64,000 nucleotides of DNA from Rhina ancylostomus. Its lineage: Eukaryota. Numbering within the stretch: position 1 is the first letter of the stretch; each line of letters opens with the position of its first letter. The position numbers were made by a program, and so were the translations under genes. The stretch is taken from positions 16,623,813 through 16,687,812 of the forward strand of contig JARFYF010000050.1 in the NCBI GenBank assembly GCA_030265395.1, written 5' to 3'. The notes below the pieces were generated by a model. It worked only from the letters and a program-made list of their open reading frames with translations, had not been told where the DNA came from and searched no databases. Below, one piece after another: positions 5,157 to 62,396 of this stretch.

Positions 5157-5310
5157 ATTATTCTCTGGATTGGTCTCATTATTCTGGTGATCAGCACATT
5201 TTCTACTCTGACCGCAACAAGTGACCAACTGGTAACACCTGAAAAGTCACCTCAGGACATTAACCATGAGAAGTTACAAAATGACATTAACGTGCAGCAG
5301 AAAATCTCAG
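5157..5310 (+). CDS. SLC38A10: SLC38A10 internal exon: last TM helix and start of the C-terminal tail
   Basis: tttcttcag acceptor and CAG|GTAAGT donor; phase 0 to 1. Encodes IILWIGLIILVISTFSTLTATSDQ...QQKIS, resembling recalled human VVLWVGLGVLVVSTVTTLS. Upstream exons lie outside the window. Confidence 0.93.
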
Positions 5311-7324
5311 GTAAGTGTGGGAGAGGAGAGGGAGAGACCTTGGTGGTTGTGAAGTGTTTAAACCCTTTGTGATCAATTCAAGTGTTGGGAAGAATGAGCA
5401 ATTTATATGGAAGAGTGTTGCAGTTTAGCAGTTTTGGAACTTATTGAATTGAACGTAATTTATTTAGGACAGAAATTGTAATACATACTCTGGGAATACC
5501 AAGTCTGTGAAGGAAAATTAGTGGGATTTTGATTCATTGATTATTTACGGTTTCTGACAAAACTATTTTATGATTGAACTGAATGAATGGGACTGCCTAC
5601 AAAGAAATGAGAGAAACTGTACCTGAAAACTGTTGATGAATGAAACATTATTGACAAGGATGTCATCTTTGATAATAAATTGAAGATTTTTAAAAACTGA
5701 TGGTCATGATTCATCTCTCAAATGCCTCTCCTCCCCACAAGCAACTTTGTTGATAATGCATCCATGTACATTAATTGTTCAAGCCAGTATTTGTTAATGA
5801 TATGCAATCTTTGAGATGAGAAGAGAAAAACAAATGGCTGTGTGACTGTGGGGAAGGGGCAGTGTGAAACAGCTGATTAATATATTGACTGAACCGAAAG
5901 AGTGGATCCAATGAACTCTTTAAAAATGTTTGTTTTCCTGTCATTGCAAGTATTGCATGATACATTGAAGTTACTGAACTTATTCTGGCATCAATTGCTA
6001 ACCACAATTTTAATCTTCCAGAACTAATCCTAGATTTTCATCATTTTAAGCAGCCTGCACTGAGCAGTGTTTCAATTTAAATAAGACTTGTTACAATTTT
6101 ATGTACAATATTCTCTCTCAAATATTCACTAGCAATTTCTGTTCCATGCACATATGGCCTGAAACTGCTAGTTTTGTCTTTTGTAAACTTGTATGACCTG
6201 ATGATAGTTCCATACTTGCAGTTTACAGGATTAAATATAATTTCATGGTATGTGGCAACACTGTGGACTTGTGAACATTTTACAAGGTAATAAGTATTAT
6301 TTTTTCAGATTTTTAGTTCATTTAAGTGAAACCAAAAATAAGAAGTTTACAGACATAAAAGCAAGCGGAACAAAAAAGCTGTAATGGATCACCTATTATT
6401 TGAAAATGCTTTTAGCTGCAGAAAGAAAATCCTAGAATGTTCAGGAATGGCAAGTGATTTTACTTTAAATCATAATGAAGTGTATTTAATGTAACTATAC
6501 AGACAATGCAATGGGGTACTTTGATAATTCCAGGCATTGGAAAATATTCATGAACAATTTTAGATACATAGATTTAAATTTCCTAACTCGAAGTCAAATT
6601 CACAGACTTGAATGTTATTGCATCCTTAAATTGGCAATGCTGGACTGGTACATGTGCAAGTGTATGCAAATCATAAGCAATGTAAAATTTGCATCTTTAA
6701 TTAGAAGCTTACATTTTTCTCTGCCAATTTTCACTCACTTTATGGCCTAAATTTTCTAGTCAGCAGCAAGCCAACTCGCAACTAATCAGCCAGCCAAGAA
6801 ATAAGTTACCTAATTTGCATCAGATTTGAATTTGTTGGACAAAAGCATCCAGATCTTTAGTGAGTTGCTAAACTTAACGATGTAGGTAAGGCATCACTCT
6901 TGGATTCAGAAACATTCAAAAACACTCAGACTGTTGCAAATTAATTAATAAACAAAAATGAAGAGATTTAAAATAACTATTTAACAATTCAGTTCAAAAG
7001 AAGTAAATCTAATAGTTGCCTCTTCCCCTACAGCAGTTCCTCTCAATTGAATGGAGATGGAATCTGGCATGGCTTTCTAAGGCAGCATCTGCAGTTTAAG
7101 TCCTGGGGAGTTGTTGCAACTTTGTGCTCTGACACTGAATTACATGTTGGACACTTGATGGGGGCATAATTGGGAAAATGTCAGCATTTTGATTTCCAGT
7201 ATTTCCTGAAAAATTCATGCCTATGAGTATCAAATAAAGTAGTTGTCTAAAGTGGAACCATACTTCGTCGATGATAAAACTTGGAAGAGGCATAAATAAG
7301 ATAGCCAAATCATCTGAAGTTGGG

Positions 7325-39500: not shown

Positions 39501-40101
39501 CGTGCAGTTATATGTGTTTTTCATCCTATTCATTTGTGATCCTAATTTTTTTTGAAGTTATTAATTTGAGCAGTTTCAGACCCAGTATCTTAATATTTTA
39601 ACACTATACTTGGATCTATGTGCTCAGCTCAATAATGACTGCTAACTTGACTTGGACATGTTTCATGAAAGCCAGTGGAACATGGTACACATAGTATTTT
39701 ATAGCTGAAGTAATCCTTTTGTAAAGAAAAATGAAAGGAATGCACGCATTCTAATGTGTATATTGAATTGGGTTGAAAAAAATAATTCAGCTAAGCTGTC
39801 TAGAACTAATTTAAGGCCAGTGGTGAAATTTTAATGGAGTGATTTCTGTAGGGTCACTTATGGACAATCTGAGGATTAAAACCTCAATCAAATTGAATGT
39901 AATTATGCTGCTGCAGATATAAGGAAGCTTGAATAAAGAGAATGTAAAATCATTGAAGTTATCTAAGCATTGCCTAAATTTGTTTAATTTGGCTGCTAAA
40001 TATATGCTTGCTAAGTATTAGTCAGTTTGGCAATAATTGTTCAAGTCACTAAGAGTTTTTGAATGTGAAATAATGACATTTTTGGATTTCTGTATTTTTA
40101 G

Positions 40102-40257
40102 CTCAAAACATTGTGATTAAGGAACCAAATGATGATAGAGACCGTCCAAAATTAGAGAAAGATGTTGTAGAACAACCTCAGATAAAGGTCCCAATGGAGC
40201 CACATGAAGATAGAAATGACAAGGGTGAGGAAGTCCAGCTGGATCGCCCTGACCAAG
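40102..40257 (+). CDS. SLC38A10: SLC38A10 internal exon
   Basis: tttttag acceptor and AAG|GTACGG donor; 156 nt, phase 1-1. Encodes AQNIVIKEP...QIKVPMEP...EEVQLDRPDQ, cf. human QIKGPVDVP...EEAQLDRPGQ. Confidence 0.95.
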
Positions 40258-40739
40258 GTACGGCTAGTTGTTTCCATGTGGAAATTCACTTTGAACGGGA
40301 CTTGAAGATTTTATTTATGAGCTGATTGCTTAGACCTGCCCTCTGGCATCATATGTTTTTTTAAATTCTGTTTTTGTTCCAAACGTTGTGCTTAAACTTA
40401 ATTTTCTTGTGTCGAGGAGGAAAACTGGAGGGGTTTAATTTCTTTGTTCTTTTTCCTTTTTATTTTGCAAGGCAGTTTCTGTTTTTGTTCTCTGTTGCAC
40501 AGGTTAACCCTTGGAAATTTGTAAAAAGTGGCTTATCTCCCCTCCAGCTTTCCTCCTCAATGTAGAGAAATGCCAAGCTATGGAAGCTCCGGAGTGACTG
40601 CAATATTGCATCGATCCCACAGTCATTTTAAAAGTGAGACTAACTTTAAAGGATTGCTTCAGGATAAAAGCCCATAACCTACTAAAAGAGAGTGTCTTCC
40701 AAAGACGTACAGGTTTGGAAGTTGTGGGCATGCTCTGTT

Positions 40740-41547: not shown

Positions 41548-41570
41548 GCTTTTTACTTTCTTCTTTTCAG

Positions 41571-42044
41571 GGGTTGCTCATCCTGTCGGAGAAGCTCATC
41601 GACATGAACCACCCAACCCCCACGACGAGGTTATTGTAGATGAAGGTATGGATGGTGATGAATCAAATGAAAAGAAGCTACCAGTGATGAAAGCTGAGCA
41701 GGCAAATGATGTAAAGCAGGAAGCCAACATTAATGTTAAAGAAAAAGAGGTAAAAGAATCAAAAGAGGAAGCAAAAATTAATCCTGTAGTAAAAAAACAG
41801 GGTGAAAAAATTGGAAATGACATCAATAATCCTGGAAATGCTCCAGAAGCTAAATCAGAGCAAAAGGAACAGCCAGCCAAGATGGAAGTGGAAATGAATG
41901 CAAAAGGTGCAGTGCCTCAAGCAGGCGTAGAAATACATCAACAAAAGATGGATAAACATGGCAAAATTCCTGGAAAAGATGATTCTGTGATTCATAATCA
42001 AGAAGGAATGGTAGAAAACATGAACAACAAAGATGTTAAAAATG
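41571..42044 (+). CDS. SLC38A10: SLC38A10 internal exon
   Basis: ttcttttcag acceptor and ATG|GTAAGC donor; 474 nt, phase 1-1. [26 protein letters not shown] matches the recalled human hallmark [26 protein letters not shown]. Confidence 0.96.
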
Positions 42045-44257: not shown

Positions 44258-44386
44258 GCAACAAGAAGGATTTTCCATCTTTGGAAAAGGTTGATGCAGC
44301 TGGAGAATCACAGTTACACATCAGAGATGAGAGAGACAATGAAAATGCAATTGTGGAAGGAAAACAAGATGGAGAAGTAGTAGAGG
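44258..44386 (+). CDS. SLC38A10: SLC38A10 internal exon (poorly conserved, acidic)
   Basis: Pyrimidine tract plus aag acceptor and AGG|GTGAGT donor; 129 nt, phase 1-1. Open purine-rich frame GNKKDFPSLEK...DGEVVE keeps frame between the neighbouring exons. Confidence 0.85.
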
Positions 44387-45234
44387 GTGAGTGGTGACAG
44401 GAAGTATACTGGGCTCTAAAGCTCTTGGAAAGCTTTTGGTTCAAAGCAAATACCACTTTAAGCATTTCATTGGCCAGTGTCTTTGACATTAAAATCTATA
44501 ACTGCACAGCCATTTTAAGGTTTTGAAATACTCTATGGTACAAATGCAGTTTTTTTCCCCTCAGTCCTTCGTATATTCTCTTGCCGCCTTTAGCCTTATC
44601 ACTGTCTCTCCTCTCTCTCGCACACCTCTGATTCACCAACTATTTAACTTTTTAGAGTTAATTTTTCCACTTCTTTTAAAACCTCTCCCACAACATCATA
44701 AATTGCTAAAGTTCGTTGCTGCAAAGAAAATTGTGACTTCTAAAAAATGCTGGTCTATAGCGATTTTACTTGCCCAGTAAACAGAATGCACCATGCTGAT
44801 CAATGCAGTACGTAGCTTTCTCCTTTTATAATTCATAACTCAACAGATCAGATTAAGAAATAAAACTGCAAAGCTTTGTGGTCTGAAGGTTGTACTCAGC
44901 AGAATTTACATATTAAATTATTTTGCACATTCAGTCATTTATCTCTCCAGTTTTATTCCCCACCTCGTTATCCAATTTAAAATATTGAAAACCAGCTAGC
45001 AGTTAGATGACATTTCTTTCCTCCTTGTGGATCAACATCTGTAGTTTGCTCATTGTGAAAATGGGGAATTATAACATGGCCCCACTTCCTACCACACTTT
45101 GGAAACTGAAATTTTGATGAAATCTGTATTTATGGACCTTGAATTAAATTCAAGTTTCTACATCAATCAATATGTTGATGTTTCTTCACCATTGGAACCC
45201 CAACTCTCAAAAAAAAAGTACAATAAAAGTGCCT

Positions 45235-45931: not shown

Positions 45932-46099
45932 GTGAGGGAAAACACATGGATCATGTAGCTTTACTGAATGTGATTAAAGAGCAGCAAGAACAGCAGAAGC
46001 GACTGTTGGACCAACAGGAGAAACTGTTGGCTGTCATTCAGGAACAACACAAGGAGATCCACCAGCAAAAGAATGATGATGAGGACAAAGGACAGCTGG
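45932..46099 (+). CDS. SLC38A10: SLC38A10 coiled-coil exon
   Basis: tcctcatgcag acceptor and TGG|GTGAGA donor; 168 nt. [41 protein letters not shown] is nearly identical to the recalled human sequence. Confidence 0.97.
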
Positions 46100-46593
46100 G
46101 TGAGAGCCATTATAAAGAACACAGTAAAGATGGGCAATTCTGTACTAATTTGGGTGACAATTCTTTAAGAGGTAGATTCATTTAGCATTGTTCAGTTTGG
46201 GACATTTTTACTGATGTATTTAACATTATAGACAAGATTAATCATAACCACTCAATAGGTTGCTGTGGTGTGATGTAACTAGCAAAGCAACTTAATGCTG
46301 CAGAGAGGAACTGAACATGATGGTTTACTCTGGATTGCAAATCTAAATGAAAATTCAATTGATGTAGGTCTTTTATAAACAATATATTTAAATAGTTGGG
46401 TAAAATTATATAACATCTATGGAACAGCAAGAAAGAGGCAAATGCGCAAATTCTGCCCATTCAGCCAAATGAGCAGAATGGCCACTAACAGTATTATAAA
46501 GTTTTTATTGTCCTATAACTAATAAATCTGATCATTTTTCATGCTTTTGCTTATTACTCTTGCATCTCCTTTACTTTTTTGAAATTTCTGTAG

Positions 46594-47786
46594 ATAATGA
46601 AAATCCCGTGAAAGAGAAAATTGATCAAGGAAGTGAAGATAGGGTAAAAAATGTCGAGGCTGTGAATGGGCAGAAGGAGGAGAAGCCTCATATAATCAAT
46701 GCTGGTTTGCAGAGTGACTCTCCTCCTAAACTTGACCAAGATTTGCTAGCAGCTGATCACAAGAAAGATAATATTGAACTTAAAAATGTTATGCACAAAG
46801 CTCAGCGCAGTGCCCTAGAAAATCAGGATCGAGTTCATGATCCTAAGCAAGATGCTAAAATTGATGTTGACGTTCATAAAGTTGCCCCTCAGCTGAAAGA
46901 TGGAATCAAAGAAATTGACCAAAACATTGGGGCTCCAGGACTTCTCTTGAAAAGCAAAGATGGTGAAAAAATGATGCTTCAGAATGATGTTGAAGTTCCT
47001 GAAGCAGCAGCTAAATCTGCCCAAGAGCATGGATTTAGAAATCCAAATATTCCCTTGGAGAATGTGATCAGAGTTCAAAGGAAAGAAGCTGAAGCTGGGT
47101 TTCGAAATCTGAAGATCCCAGATAAAGACACAAAGTTTTCTGAAGGTCTCAATGTTGAAGTAAAATCAAAAAATGAAGTTCATGGCATTGAGTTGAAAAT
47201 TGAGCCCAATCCTTTAATAGAAAAACCGAAGCATGATGAGAAGAATGAAAAAGTAAGAGTTGGAGCTAAGGATGTATTTGAGGGAAAGGATGATCACCCA
47301 GTTGGACACATGGAAGATGGGAAGGAAAAAATTGAGCAGCCAGTGAATGCAGCTAGAATTCCAAAAATTTCAGAGGAAAATCTCAAAGACAGAGCACAAG
47401 AATCTGACAAAAGGAAAGTTGAAGACGATTCTTTGAAAAATCATAGAAAAGCTTCAGATGACGAGATGCAGCCAGACCCAAACATTGTGCCACAACACAA
47501 GGAAAAGAATCCAAGCCAGAAGAATGGTGAACCATACAAAGACCTGAAAGTCGATGGAGGTGGCGATCTACGCAGAAAAAAGAGGGACCTAAGGTCACAA
47601 ATAGATGAAGGCCATCCGGATGATGGGGATAAACTGATCATCAACCTTGATCCAGTGCCAAACTTTAAAACTGACGATCTCCGAAGTGCCCTGGAGAACC
47701 AGCTGAAACAGGTAGCAGGAGGATCATTCCAAATAGTTCAGAGCCGAAAGATGAAACAAGTGACCAGCACCGAAGGTGATACATGA
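46594..47786 (+). CDS. SLC38A10: SLC38A10 terminal coding exon
   Basis: tttctgtag acceptor, phase 1, open to TGA at 47784-47786. Ends DLKVDGGGDLRRKKRDL...DDLRSALENQLKQVAGGSFQIVQSRKMKQ, cf. human DLKLQAGSDLRRRRRDL...NDLRGALDAQLRQAAGGALQVVHSRQLRQ. Confidence 0.96.
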
Positions 47787-49870
47787 TTCCTGTCCCAAGT
47801 TCCAGAGGATACATTTGAGGTTCAAGCAAAATAGTTCTTGGATGGTATGGGTATGAAGATTCCTTTTGTGTGCCATGTGCAGCTTATACAGTGTCCTGAC
47901 TGCATTGCATTGTGTGAATGAAGTCCACTTACAACAAATCAGTAGGATTTTAAGAAGCATTTTGAAGTAATTCAGAAAGTTTTTGGAATTTGGTTACCTG
48001 CTAAATAGCAATTGTACAAGGAGATTAATTAATGATGTCATCTGGATCATTTGATATATGTACTGAAGCTGATGATTATCGGAAGGGAGTGGGTAATCCA
48101 GAAATTCTTTAAAAAAAGTGTGAATTACAGGAAATCTCGAATCCTGTTGTTCTGTGCATCTATTAATAGAAGCCACCAAGAATGAATAAAAATATACTGC
48201 AACCTATGGGATTGTGACAGCTAAATGTACCATTGATTGTATGAAGGCCATGTTCAAACCTTTGAAATGCAACTAAACCACCCAACTACTAGTGTCTTCA
48301 ATTTCCTCTCAGGGACAACAAGCTGCTTCAATGCAAACAGCAAGCTTTTCTTATTGGATATTTCTAAATGGATATTCATTAGGCAGTTGATTGTATATTT
48401 TAATAATATAAAGATTTGTGTGATTAATGCCTAAATTTTTTACATGTGTGCACGAGTAAGTTATCATCTAAACTCTCACCAATATTTGATTTAAGACCTT
48501 CCTTTTCTTGCTAAAATAAACTACTTTGGATCACATTTTATGCCTTAAAATGTGCTCGATTCTCCATTAATCCATTGTGCATTGAATTTTATAATGACTA
48601 CCTTATAATCTTGGCATTCTGAAAAACTGATGAATTATTTTGCACGAGTTCTTTTCACAGTAGTGTTTTGAACTAATTGTGTATTTTATGATGGGTGAAA
48701 GGTGCAATATTTAATTGTGGCCATTTATCTAACTCTTGCACAGCATACCTGTTGGCAAAATATGTAGGTCAGCTGTTATGCCCAGAAAATGGAAATGTAT
48801 ATTTTAAATGAATAATCCAGAATAAGTTCCTGAATAATGCATTATTTATATAAGAAACACTTTTTTCTCTGTATACTTTAAGTTTACAAAAATTCTTCAT
48901 AAACCAATTTTAAGTGTTCAAAAAAAATTGGGTTCTCAATTCTGACTGTACACAAGATTTCATTTGTATCTTCCATACCCATTTGCAACAGGTATCAGAT
49001 CAAGGGCCAGTCAGTGTTGGAACATGGGGTGTCTATTTTCACTTCATAGAAATGCCTTAAAGCCAAAGTAGATACCAAGTTTCTCTTTTCTCACAGGGCT
49101 GGGAGATAAATATTTTAAAGGTTCAAATATCCATGTTTTTAGATGTAATCCATATGAATGCAAGTCCCTGGAATTAGTTGCATTTAATTAGGTTGACTAT
49201 TCAAATAATGCCATGCTGGCACTACCACCAAGTTGTTCCCATTTACAAGCTTTCACACATGTAATTTTTTTTTTGTTAGAGTGTTTTTAATTTACTTTTA
49301 ATATCTATGTTCAAAGATGTATAAACTCGGCACACTTGTAAATAATAGTATTAAAACAAATGGTATGATAGATTCTATGCGGGGTTCAGAACAGGCAGTA
49401 ATTTTTCAATTTCCAAATACTTATTAGAATATCAGTTTTATTTATGGAAACTGATCAGGGCAGAGAAGCAGGTTATTTATAATTGCATAAATTAATGTGG
49501 CCTAAATATAGTGACTATTTTTGCAAATATTTTTAAGCCACAAAAATCTTCCAATGACTTAACTTTCCAGTCCATCACCAAGTTGCAAATATGACTGCTA
49601 AGTAAATTTTTCTTAAACTATTTATTACTCATTTATTAATTGCCTTCTGTTTATTACCAATGCTACAAGGAATCAAAGGTTAAAATCATCCATGTCCCAA
49701 CAACTATTGTTATGTTTCATTTTACGTGACTTAAGTTGATGCATGTGTTTCTGTGTCCTTTTACAACATTACAAAACTGTAAATGTTACTATCTTCATAC
49801 AAGTAGTATACCAGTTAGTTTACTTATATACATTAAAATAAAGATTCTGCAACATCTCAGCAAAGAGGAT
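47787..49870 (+). other. Probable SLC38A10 3' UTR with candidate poly(A) signals
   Basis: AT-rich and TE-poor after the stop codon. AATAAA at 48185, 48515 and 49837 (overlapping ATTAAA at 49832), and again at 50728. The true end is not determinable. Confidence 0.55.
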
Positions 49871-57804: not shown

Positions 57805-58231
57805 GTACGAGAGGACTGGAGGGTGGCAAATGTTGTCTCCATATTCAAAAAAGCTAGTAGGGATAGTCCAGGGAATTATAGACCAGTGAGCTTTACATCT
57901 GTGGTGGGCAAGCTATTGGAAAGGATTCTTAGAATCTAGGATCTATGAGCATTTAGAGAATCATGGTCTGATCAGGGACAGCCAGCACAGCTTTGTGAAG
58001 GGCAGATCATGTCTTACAAGCCTGAGAAGGTGACCAGACAGATTGATGAGGGTAGTGAGGTAGATGTGGTCTACATGGATTTTAGTAAAGCATTTGACAA
58101 GGTTCCACATGGTAGGCTTCTTCAGAAGGTCAGAGGGTATGGGATCCATGGAACCTTGGCCGTGTGGATTCAGAATTGGCTTGCCTGTAGAAAGCAGAGG
58201 GTTGTGGTGGAGGGAGTGCATTCAGATTGGA
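57805..58231 (+). mobile_element. Relatively young CR1 RT fragment
   Basis: PGNYRPVSFTSVVGKLLE, SQHSFVKGRSCLT, VDVVYMDFSKAFDKVPHGRL, WIQNWLACRKQRVVV. Confidence 0.93.
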
Positions 58232-58331
58232 NNNNNNNNNNNNNNNNNNNNNNNNNNNNNNNNNNNNNNNNNNNNNNNNNNNNNNNNNNNNNNNNNNNNN
58301 NNNNNNNNNNNNNNNNNNNNNNNNNNNNNNN

Positions 58332-58945
58332 GAAGAGCATAGGTGTAGGCCACTCAGCCCCTCAAGCCTGTCCTGCCATTCAATATGATCATGGTTGATC
58401 TGCCCCAGGTCCCATCTCCTCTTCTGTGTCAGTTCCCATAGCCCGCAATTCCATGATCTTTCTACAATGTAACTGCTTCTTCTGATGATTAGCTTCCATA
58501 ACCCTCTGAAGTAGAGAATTTTTGAGATTACCCACCAGCTGTGAGGAGTTCCTCTACATCTCATTTTTAATTGGCTGCCCATAATCTTGTAACTATGCCT
58601 CCTTGTTTGAGATTCTTCCACTAGTGGAAGGAATCTCAACCTCTATCCTATTTCTCTTATGTATTTCAATAAGAAATATAAATTTCTTTAACCAGTCATG
58701 ATAGGAATTAGCTTTGTTAATTTATTTTGGACTGCCTCCAATGACAGTAAATCCTTTCTAAATAAGGGTCCAAAACTGTGCACAGTATTTCAGGTGTAGC
58801 CTCACCATTACCCAGAACAATTGTAATAATACTTGCCTCTTTCTAAACTCTAATCCTCTTGCAATAAAAAAAATGCCACTTGCCTTTCTAACCACTCACT
58901 GCACCCACTGGCTAATGTTTTAACCAGTTGTGCACAAGAACATCT
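58332..58945 (-). mobile_element. CR1 3' portion
   Basis: ggtgtaggccactcagcccctcaagcctg tail; the minus strand encodes RLHLKYCAQFWTPYL. Confidence 0.85.
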
Positions 58946-62315: not shown

Positions 62316-62396
62316 TTCTTCAGCGCACGCCGCCACGAACTGCGGGAACCTCCTGAGCCTCTCCCTGGTGCGGATCCACACCTCATTTCCCGCCAT
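62316..62396 (-). CDS. NDUFAF8: NDUFAF8 exon 1 (complex I assembly factor, twin CX9C)
   Basis: acgATGg Kozak context; MAGNEVWIRTRERLRRFPQFVAACAEE, cf. human MSANGAVWGRVRSRLRAFPERLAACGAE; donor GAA|GTGGGT, phase 0. Confidence 0.95.

Follow-up and report, generated by a model that had tools for sequence, protein, structure and literature searches.

Several membrane proteins of the secretory pathway, among them ATP6AP2 and GP73/GOLM1, are processed by furin/PCSK enzymes: a luminal cut at R-x-K/R-R frees a soluble piece from these single-pass proteins, which lose most of their ectodomain. The amino-acid transporter SLC38A10 (SNAT10, S38AA; Pfam family PF01490) bears a tail of about 720 residues for which we know of no counterpart in other SLC38 members. 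An 'S38AA fragment' is said to have been found in plasma by Hashimoto in 2019, in work that may map the ends of the fragment. Closest to the present subject, Yang 2022 described a luminal C-terminal tail of about 720-730 residues from which extramembrane fragments reach the blood (PMC9364151); shedding of the extramembrane part is thus published, and the accessible portion of that report mentions neither a protease nor a conserved polybasic site or terminal peptide. A literature search combining SLC38A10, S38AA or SNAT10 with furin, convertase or peptidome, in which subscription journals were thinly covered, likewise returned nothing on such a site or peptide.

The locus studied here lies in a window of 64,000 nucleotides, by which we mean the whole stretch of DNA that was analysed. 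An earlier note on this DNA had read the gene as SLC38A10 and proposed that a furin-type site could release a conserved peptide from the end of its tail. The identification was borne out. Among 93 candidate proteins, 15 matched the last 84 residues; 14 of these were full-length and contained PF01490, and 13 of the 14, from sharks and rays, were named SLC38A10. The best match, SLC38A10 of Pristis pectinata (P0001), was 94% identical and itself matched PF01490 (Aa_trans) with an E value of 4e-52, the domain starting at residue 2. Six exons in the window match P0001 residues 387-1128 by tblastn, and the earlier transporter exons follow in order upstream of the window on the same contig. Judged by these alignments, the window gene is the SLC38A10 orthologue of a batoid.

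Its exons within the window lie on the forward (+) strand. The end of the last transmembrane helix and the start of the luminal tail are encoded at approximately 5193..5315 (residues 387-427) and the first conserved luminal block at approximately 40101..40265 (residues 426-480); two further exons lie at about 41570..42043 (residues 478-635) and 44260..44391 (residues 637-680), all four placed by tblastn. The penultimate exon (45932..46099, residues 683-727) is separated by a GT..AG intron of 494 nt (46100..46593) from the last exon (46594-47786, 1,193 nt). In two runs from a single study of a related organism, contigs join the two exons across this intron; the RNA status of these contigs is a tool's guess, and the stretch is absent from the sequencing runs on record as RNA. 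Read-through of the last splice donor (46100-46185) would add 28 codons and a stop, giving a short form that lacks linker, site and peptide. The 710-residue homologue P0017 ends in exactly this manner, and one contig of the relative, which may be DNA, enters the intron; intron read-through could offer another means of switching off the tail.

The penultimate exon encodes a Gln/Leu-rich helix that is conserved like the membrane domain (identity 0.90, taken over residues 701-725) and is the best-predicted part of the structural model (pLDDT about 80); it is likely a luminal coiled coil. A Pro/His/acidic luminal block at residues 450-500 or thereabouts (40101-40265 and 41570-41640) shows identities of 0.6-0.8 and no Pfam match. 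Candidate AATAAA signals stand downstream of the stop codon at 48185 and 48515; the relative's contigs extend past 48600, so the 3' UTR is longer than these candidates imply. Elsewhere in the window, a 27-codon first exon on the reverse strand (62316-62396, -) sits in a GC-rich stretch tail-to-tail with SLC38A10 and has no Pfam match; we take it to resemble NDUFAF8, with which the human neighbourhood presumably agrees. Broken reading frames at 57949-58642 (-) are presumably LINE reverse-transcriptase remnants.

Translation of the last exon confirmed the layout that had drawn attention to the locus. A Cys-free linker of 324 residues (46594..47564), predicted to be disordered and poorly conserved, leads to RRKKR at 47571..47585 (CGC AGA AAA AAG AGG), which is flanked by DL on either side and would be cut after position 47585; 66 codons follow (47586..47783) before the stop codon TGA (47784..47786). 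The stretch ahead of the site had been described as some 330 residues long and acidic. With 21% D+E and 18% K+R it is highly charged rather than strongly acidic. The 66-residue peptide has a mass of 7.3 kDa and a pI of 4.6, and contains neither Cys nor a terminal Gly-basic amidation signal. RRKKR is the sole R-x-K/R-R in the last exon, and a single such motif was likewise present in each of the 15 first homologue matches. Since R-x-K/R-R arises in 15-42% of shuffled luminal tails (4 proteins, 5000 shuffles), the motif alone says little and the evidence lies in its conservation; the five-residue run [KR]R[KR][KR]R arises in 0.3-1.3% of the same shuffles.

We assembled 131 homologues, namely the 15 first matches, the best 120 of 1,189 (overlapping with these) and 10 long ones; the set is bird-heavy and its sequences are not independent. 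The site is present in 130 of this set, best 120 of 1,189 included, and spans cartilaginous fish, teleosts, amphibians, sauropsids and mammals; the sole sequence without it is P0017, which lacks the last exon. Across these 130, again drawn largely from the best 120 of 1,189, P5 is always basic, P6 is Leu in 129 and P2' is Leu, Val or Ile in 129, while P1' varies (D 118, A 6, E 4, S 1, H 1) and R-x-[ILMV]-x-Q recurs in 125. A profile of the tail searched against 1.84 billion representatives (a 50%-cluster library) gave 33 matches, two of them previously in our set. All 26 new tails carried the site, and the five remaining matches, short stretches in unrelated repeat proteins, were set aside. 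Ten matches named by look-up included coelacanth, lungfish, a frog, pika and a teleost; no recognisable invertebrate or jawless orthologue appeared among the 33, most of which are unnamed.

The pattern of identity along the tail is uneven. Between five cartilaginous fish and 14 tetrapods it is 0.82 in the membrane domain and 0.10 in the last-exon linker, 0.49 in the 12 residues upstream of the site, 0.75 at the site, 0.08 in the spacer behind it and 0.49 in the peptide core. For 23 sequences from five clades, the corresponding values are 0.82 at the site, 0.53 at P1'-P2', 0.11 in the spacer of peptide residues 3-16 (47592..47633), 0.52 in the conserved predicted helix DDLRSALENQLKQVA (47673..47717), 0.65 in the end motif IVQSRKMKQ (47733..47759), which is the best-conserved motif of the peptide, and 0.11 in the last residues. 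An orthologue alignment thus reveals the anticipated spike at the basic site and beyond, from shark to mammal, set against a linker that has diverged as the note had stated. The supposedly conserved 66-residue peptide reduces to the site, the helix and the R-x-I/L/M-x-Q core; its first 16 residues do not share in the conservation, and the length of the spacer varies such that the end motif lies anywhere from peptide position 37 to 64. The alignments show the site and the peptide core to be under selection from sharks to mammals.

About 12 residues upstream of the site, the block YKDLKVDGGGDL (47535..47570), are also conserved by identity, teleosts excepted, which keep only D/E-L. The K/R-D-L-K block in this region (47535-47564) is kept in cartilaginous fish and tetrapods and lost in the sampled teleosts, and human cerebrospinal fluid (CSF) holds free peptides that end at it. 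Two fish models, P0122 (Conger) and P0127 (Engraulis), extend beyond the tail block; at the end of the former, a coiled-coil-like stretch is repeated and R-Q-I-K-Q occurs a second time, with no second polybasic site. These extensions could be either a real exon duplication or a gene-model error. In the model P0153 (Myotis brandtii), a portion of the SLC38A10 tail is joined with a protein called Tepsin, probably a neighbour added by mistake.

A convertase cut presupposes that the tail faces the lumen. The earlier note had assumed 11 transmembrane helices, a non-cytosolic C-terminus and residence in the ER and Golgi. Our hydropathy scan gave no hydrophobic segment beyond residue 393 and no window above 0.34 past residue 400, in keeping with a luminal tail. 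It showed only nine clear peaks ahead of the tail, and AlphaFold modelled the full protein poorly (pLDDT 40), with an unreliable membrane domain. The low helix count and the poor model would suit a cytosolic tail, in which the basic run would act as a nuclear-import or ER-retention signal and no luminal cut would occur. We take mouse S1047 to fall within the terminal peptide, assuming a mouse protein of 1,090 residues. This residue is one of the GalNAc-T3-dependent O-glycosites reported along the mouse tail (S429, S636, T769, S819, T821 and S1047; PMC11402288). Labelling with an ER biotin ligase yielded SLC38A10 peptides in serum that all come from the extramembrane part (Yang 2022, PMC9364151 and preprint), the protein is located in the ER and Golgi (PMC6940841), in agreement with the note, and it is named as a FAM20C-dependent phosphoprotein (PMC12721910). 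In Hellsten 2017, TMHMM likewise gave nine helices, to which two were added by hand (PMC5458457). Published human and mouse data therefore show the tail to be luminal: the O-GalNAc sites, the biotin labelling in the ER lumen and the extracellular peptides that start or end at the site all contradict the cytosolic placement, which is largely refuted and in our estimate very improbable indeed. Of the proposed topology, the side of the C-terminus holds, but we could count only nine of the 11 helices as hydropathy peaks.

When a carboxypeptidase trims the upstream piece after a convertase cut, the characteristic result is a sharp start after the basic run together with an end just before it. Such ends are present in a published table of human CSF peptides (Muqaku 2025, PMC12340150), searched with the enzyme set to 'none', up to 65 residues and at 1% FDR. 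Five of the eight peptides listed for Q9HBR0 start at D1055, right after the Arg run R1050-1054, and are 30, 38, 46, 48 and 55 residues long; two end at L1049, immediately ahead of the run, one ends ahead of an unconserved Lys-Arg at 1023-1024, and none spans R1050-1054 (PMC12340150). Internal Arg residues are intact in these peptides, which are thus not tryptic, and the full 65-mer would lie at the length limit of the search, so that its absence from the table says little. The upstream end was also recorded in conditioned medium: a trypsin/LysC C-terminal list contains residues 1043-1049 with the neo-C-terminus L1049 in two of ten cell lines, both non-endocrine tumour lines (Tsumagari 2021, PMC7995609). 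This evidence is one 7-mer (PEP 0.007), and a metalloprotease inhibitor did not alter its level (log2 0.01 and 0.28, with the columns read by position; PMC7995609).

From the published CSF and medium tables, human SLC38A10 is cut exactly at the polybasic site; the conserved site and terminal peptide are real and the cut products occur in human fluids. Cleavage together with release of the terminal peptide we consider highly probable, and in the ray the protein would be cut as in human. The Arg run that the note had placed ahead of the human DL terminus is R1050-1054, between L1049 and D1055, and the new N-termini starting with DL that the note had suggested looking for are present in CSF, accompanied by a trimmed C-terminus in CSF and medium. 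A cytosolic tail, the lack of any cleavage product or an unconserved motif had been named as grounds for giving up the proposal; we encountered none of them.

The product appears to be scarce or patchy, since the D1055 peptides are missing from the quantified CSF list, where the sole SLC38A10 peptide is an upstream one (PMC12340150). No SLC38A10 row occurs in the N-terminal table of Tsumagari 2021 (PMC7995609) or in one small supplementary file of Hobohm 2022, and the mouse multi-tissue peptidomics supplements of Madsen 2022 (PMC9584923) contain no SLC38A10 peptide row and one proteome row. Nor is the protein found in three supplementary files of an in vitro furin screen confined to proteins with a signal peptide (Shiryaev 2013, PMC3545927). 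According to that screen, Asp at P7 and Gly at P3' reduce furin efficiency in vitro (PMC3545927). The flanks of our site combine a basic P5 and an aliphatic P2' with P7 Asp and, in human, P3' Gly, both disfavoured, and cutting may hence be partial or due to another convertase. An N-terminal antibody has been published to detect about 110 kDa where 116 is predicted, a size that cut and uncut protein would explain equally well. Furin specifically is not supported so far as the cutting enzyme; a furin-type convertase is likely.

What does the released piece do? With low confidence (pLDDT 59), AlphaFold predicts a single helix and no further structure in the tail. The helix, which the note had called amphipathic, is so only to a modest degree (moment 0.47; shuffling its own residues gives p=0.08). 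The terminal peptide matched no Pfam family, a PDB profile search with it returned a single coiled-coil match (E 0.14) and thus resemblance to no solved structure, and a search of the ESM Atlas gave no usable match. A complex predicted between the peptide and the luminal coiled coil (680-732) scored 0.00 with alignments unused, and weighs neither way. We propose that in the late Golgi a PCSK-family enzyme, likely furin-type, would cut behind the last Arg and that a carboxypeptidase would strip the Arg run from the upstream piece. The freed peptide of 65-66 residues and 7 kDa would enter the secretory stream with bulk secretion and be nibbled from its C-end. Before the cut, the short helix and V-x-S-R-x-I-x-Q, held on a flexible linker of 320 residues, might bind a partner in the lumen or at the cell surface, which may be the transporter itself; cleavage would end or relocate this binding, switching the core from tethered to free. 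The conserved part lies 17-58 residues past the cut, behind a spacer of variable length. Selection keeps this core and not the new N-terminus, the peptide has no Cys or amidation signal and the gene is described as ubiquitous, all of which favours a binding module over a hormone. That the core is a detachable protein-binding module switched by cleavage, rather than any of the rivals, we find at best slightly easier to believe than to doubt; for the explanation as a whole, cut and module together, we see the scales as level.

The CSF peptides lend themselves to another interpretation, in which the released peptide, whole or trimmed to 55 residues, would be secreted as a signalling ligand, with SLC38A10 as its prohormone- or granin-like precursor. 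The peptides are free and start sharply, all eight have one end beside a basic site (five after the Arg run, two before it, one at Lys-Arg 1023-1024), and the core forms a conserved island within a divergent charged linker; furthermore, SLC38A10 knockout mice are lighter, and a signalling role has been suggested for the tail (PMC9017388). Their C-ends are ragged, however, cutting through the conserved core at 30, 38, 46, 48 and 55 residues, the N-terminal 16 residues are unconserved and variable in length, the gene is described as ubiquitous, and resemblance to any Pfam family or solved structure is absent, as are Cys and an amidation signal in the window's peptide. To our knowledge, no activity or receptor is known for the released peptide. 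The hormone-like signal of the earlier note fares poorly against a precursor that is a ubiquitous polytopic membrane protein; of its prohormone/granin layout, the conserved island in a divergent spacer survives, whereas the soluble signal-peptide precursor, conserved termini (0.11), amidation Gly and disulfide are all wanting. We regard a signalling ligand as unlikely. Equally unlikely, in its boldest form, is a hidden prohormone, that is, a Golgi amino-acid transporter that also gives rise to an orphan secreted peptide signal of the same age as the jawed vertebrates; if true, it would be present in human CSF, missed by furin and prohormone screens based on signal peptides, and would account for part of the knockout growth phenotype.

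The end motif could also point to a protease. Site-1 protease recognises R-x-L/I/V-x, and the C-terminal peptide of 7B2 regulates PC2; by analogy, S-R-x-I/L-x-Q might be a second cut site or a pseudo-substrate of a subtilisin-like Golgi protease, and the peptide a regulator of its convertase. No part of the peptide is better conserved than this motif, teleosts included, a similar R/K-D-L-K block lies upstream of the site, and L1109, where the longest CSF peptide stops, is one residue ahead of the motif Arg, as a cut and trimming would leave it. Yet this end belongs to one peptide among ragged ones, the upstream R-D-L-K is intact in two CSF peptides, the near-invariant Gln falls outside the protease consensus, and neither Pfam nor the profile search yielded a relative of 7B2 or proSAAS, which renders such a regulator or second cut site improbable. 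Finally, cleavage might be mere turnover or bulk ectodomain shedding, with a tail that works only while attached, for instance in sorting or retention, and a free peptide that is debris. Upstream linker peptides are indeed free in CSF and serum, and detection is sparse; but a degradation site need not keep a five-residue run, a P6 Leu and an aliphatic P2' across the sampled jawed-vertebrate groups, and the L1049 end is insensitive to a metalloprotease inhibitor. This explanation strikes us as quite improbable.

The tail of SLC38A10 gains a defined processing step with an invariant site, a known product N-terminus and a conserved core, and the D1055 product sits unremarked in published human CSF tables. 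The proteome-wide furin screen required a signal peptide (PMC3545927), hence polytopic precursors were skipped, a blind spot. Processing of the tail separates transport from tail functions when knockout mice are interpreted, and C-terminal tags or antibody epitopes may be lost from the mature protein. Cleavage may also explain the circulating 'S38AA fragment', a proposed Alzheimer biomarker.

Set beside ATP6AP2 and GOLM1, SLC38A10 differs in being polytopic, in lacking a signal peptide and in losing a short terminal peptide some 660 residues away from the membrane. The C-terminal peptide of 7B2 (SCG5) and proSAAS are built alike, with a pentabasic site ahead of a short terminal peptide that bears a conserved basic motif close to its end, but they derive from soluble, neuroendocrine-specific precursors with demonstrated convertase inhibition and show no sequence likeness to the SLC38A10 tail. 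The inhibitory tracts of ENaC alpha and gamma and the heparin-binding tail of SOD3 are cases in which removal of a small extracellular element by a convertase switches the parent protein; ENaC needs to be cut twice within a folded domain, any effect of the cut on SLC38A10 transport would be hypothetical, and the SOD3 tail is basic, unlike the acidic SLC38A10 peptide (pI 4.6). Granins resemble SLC38A10 in their long charged disordered region, Golgi modifications and peptides bounded by basic residues; they are, however, soluble, carry signal peptides, have many conserved dibasic sites and are secreted in a regulated manner, as opposed to one conserved site in a ubiquitous membrane protein. With R-x-K/R-R at P4-P1, a site that faces the lumen, and a human neo-N-terminus matched by a trimmed upstream end, SLC38A10 is by these measures a convertase-type substrate, and by the nature of its precursor and its termini it does not belong with the prohormones or granins.
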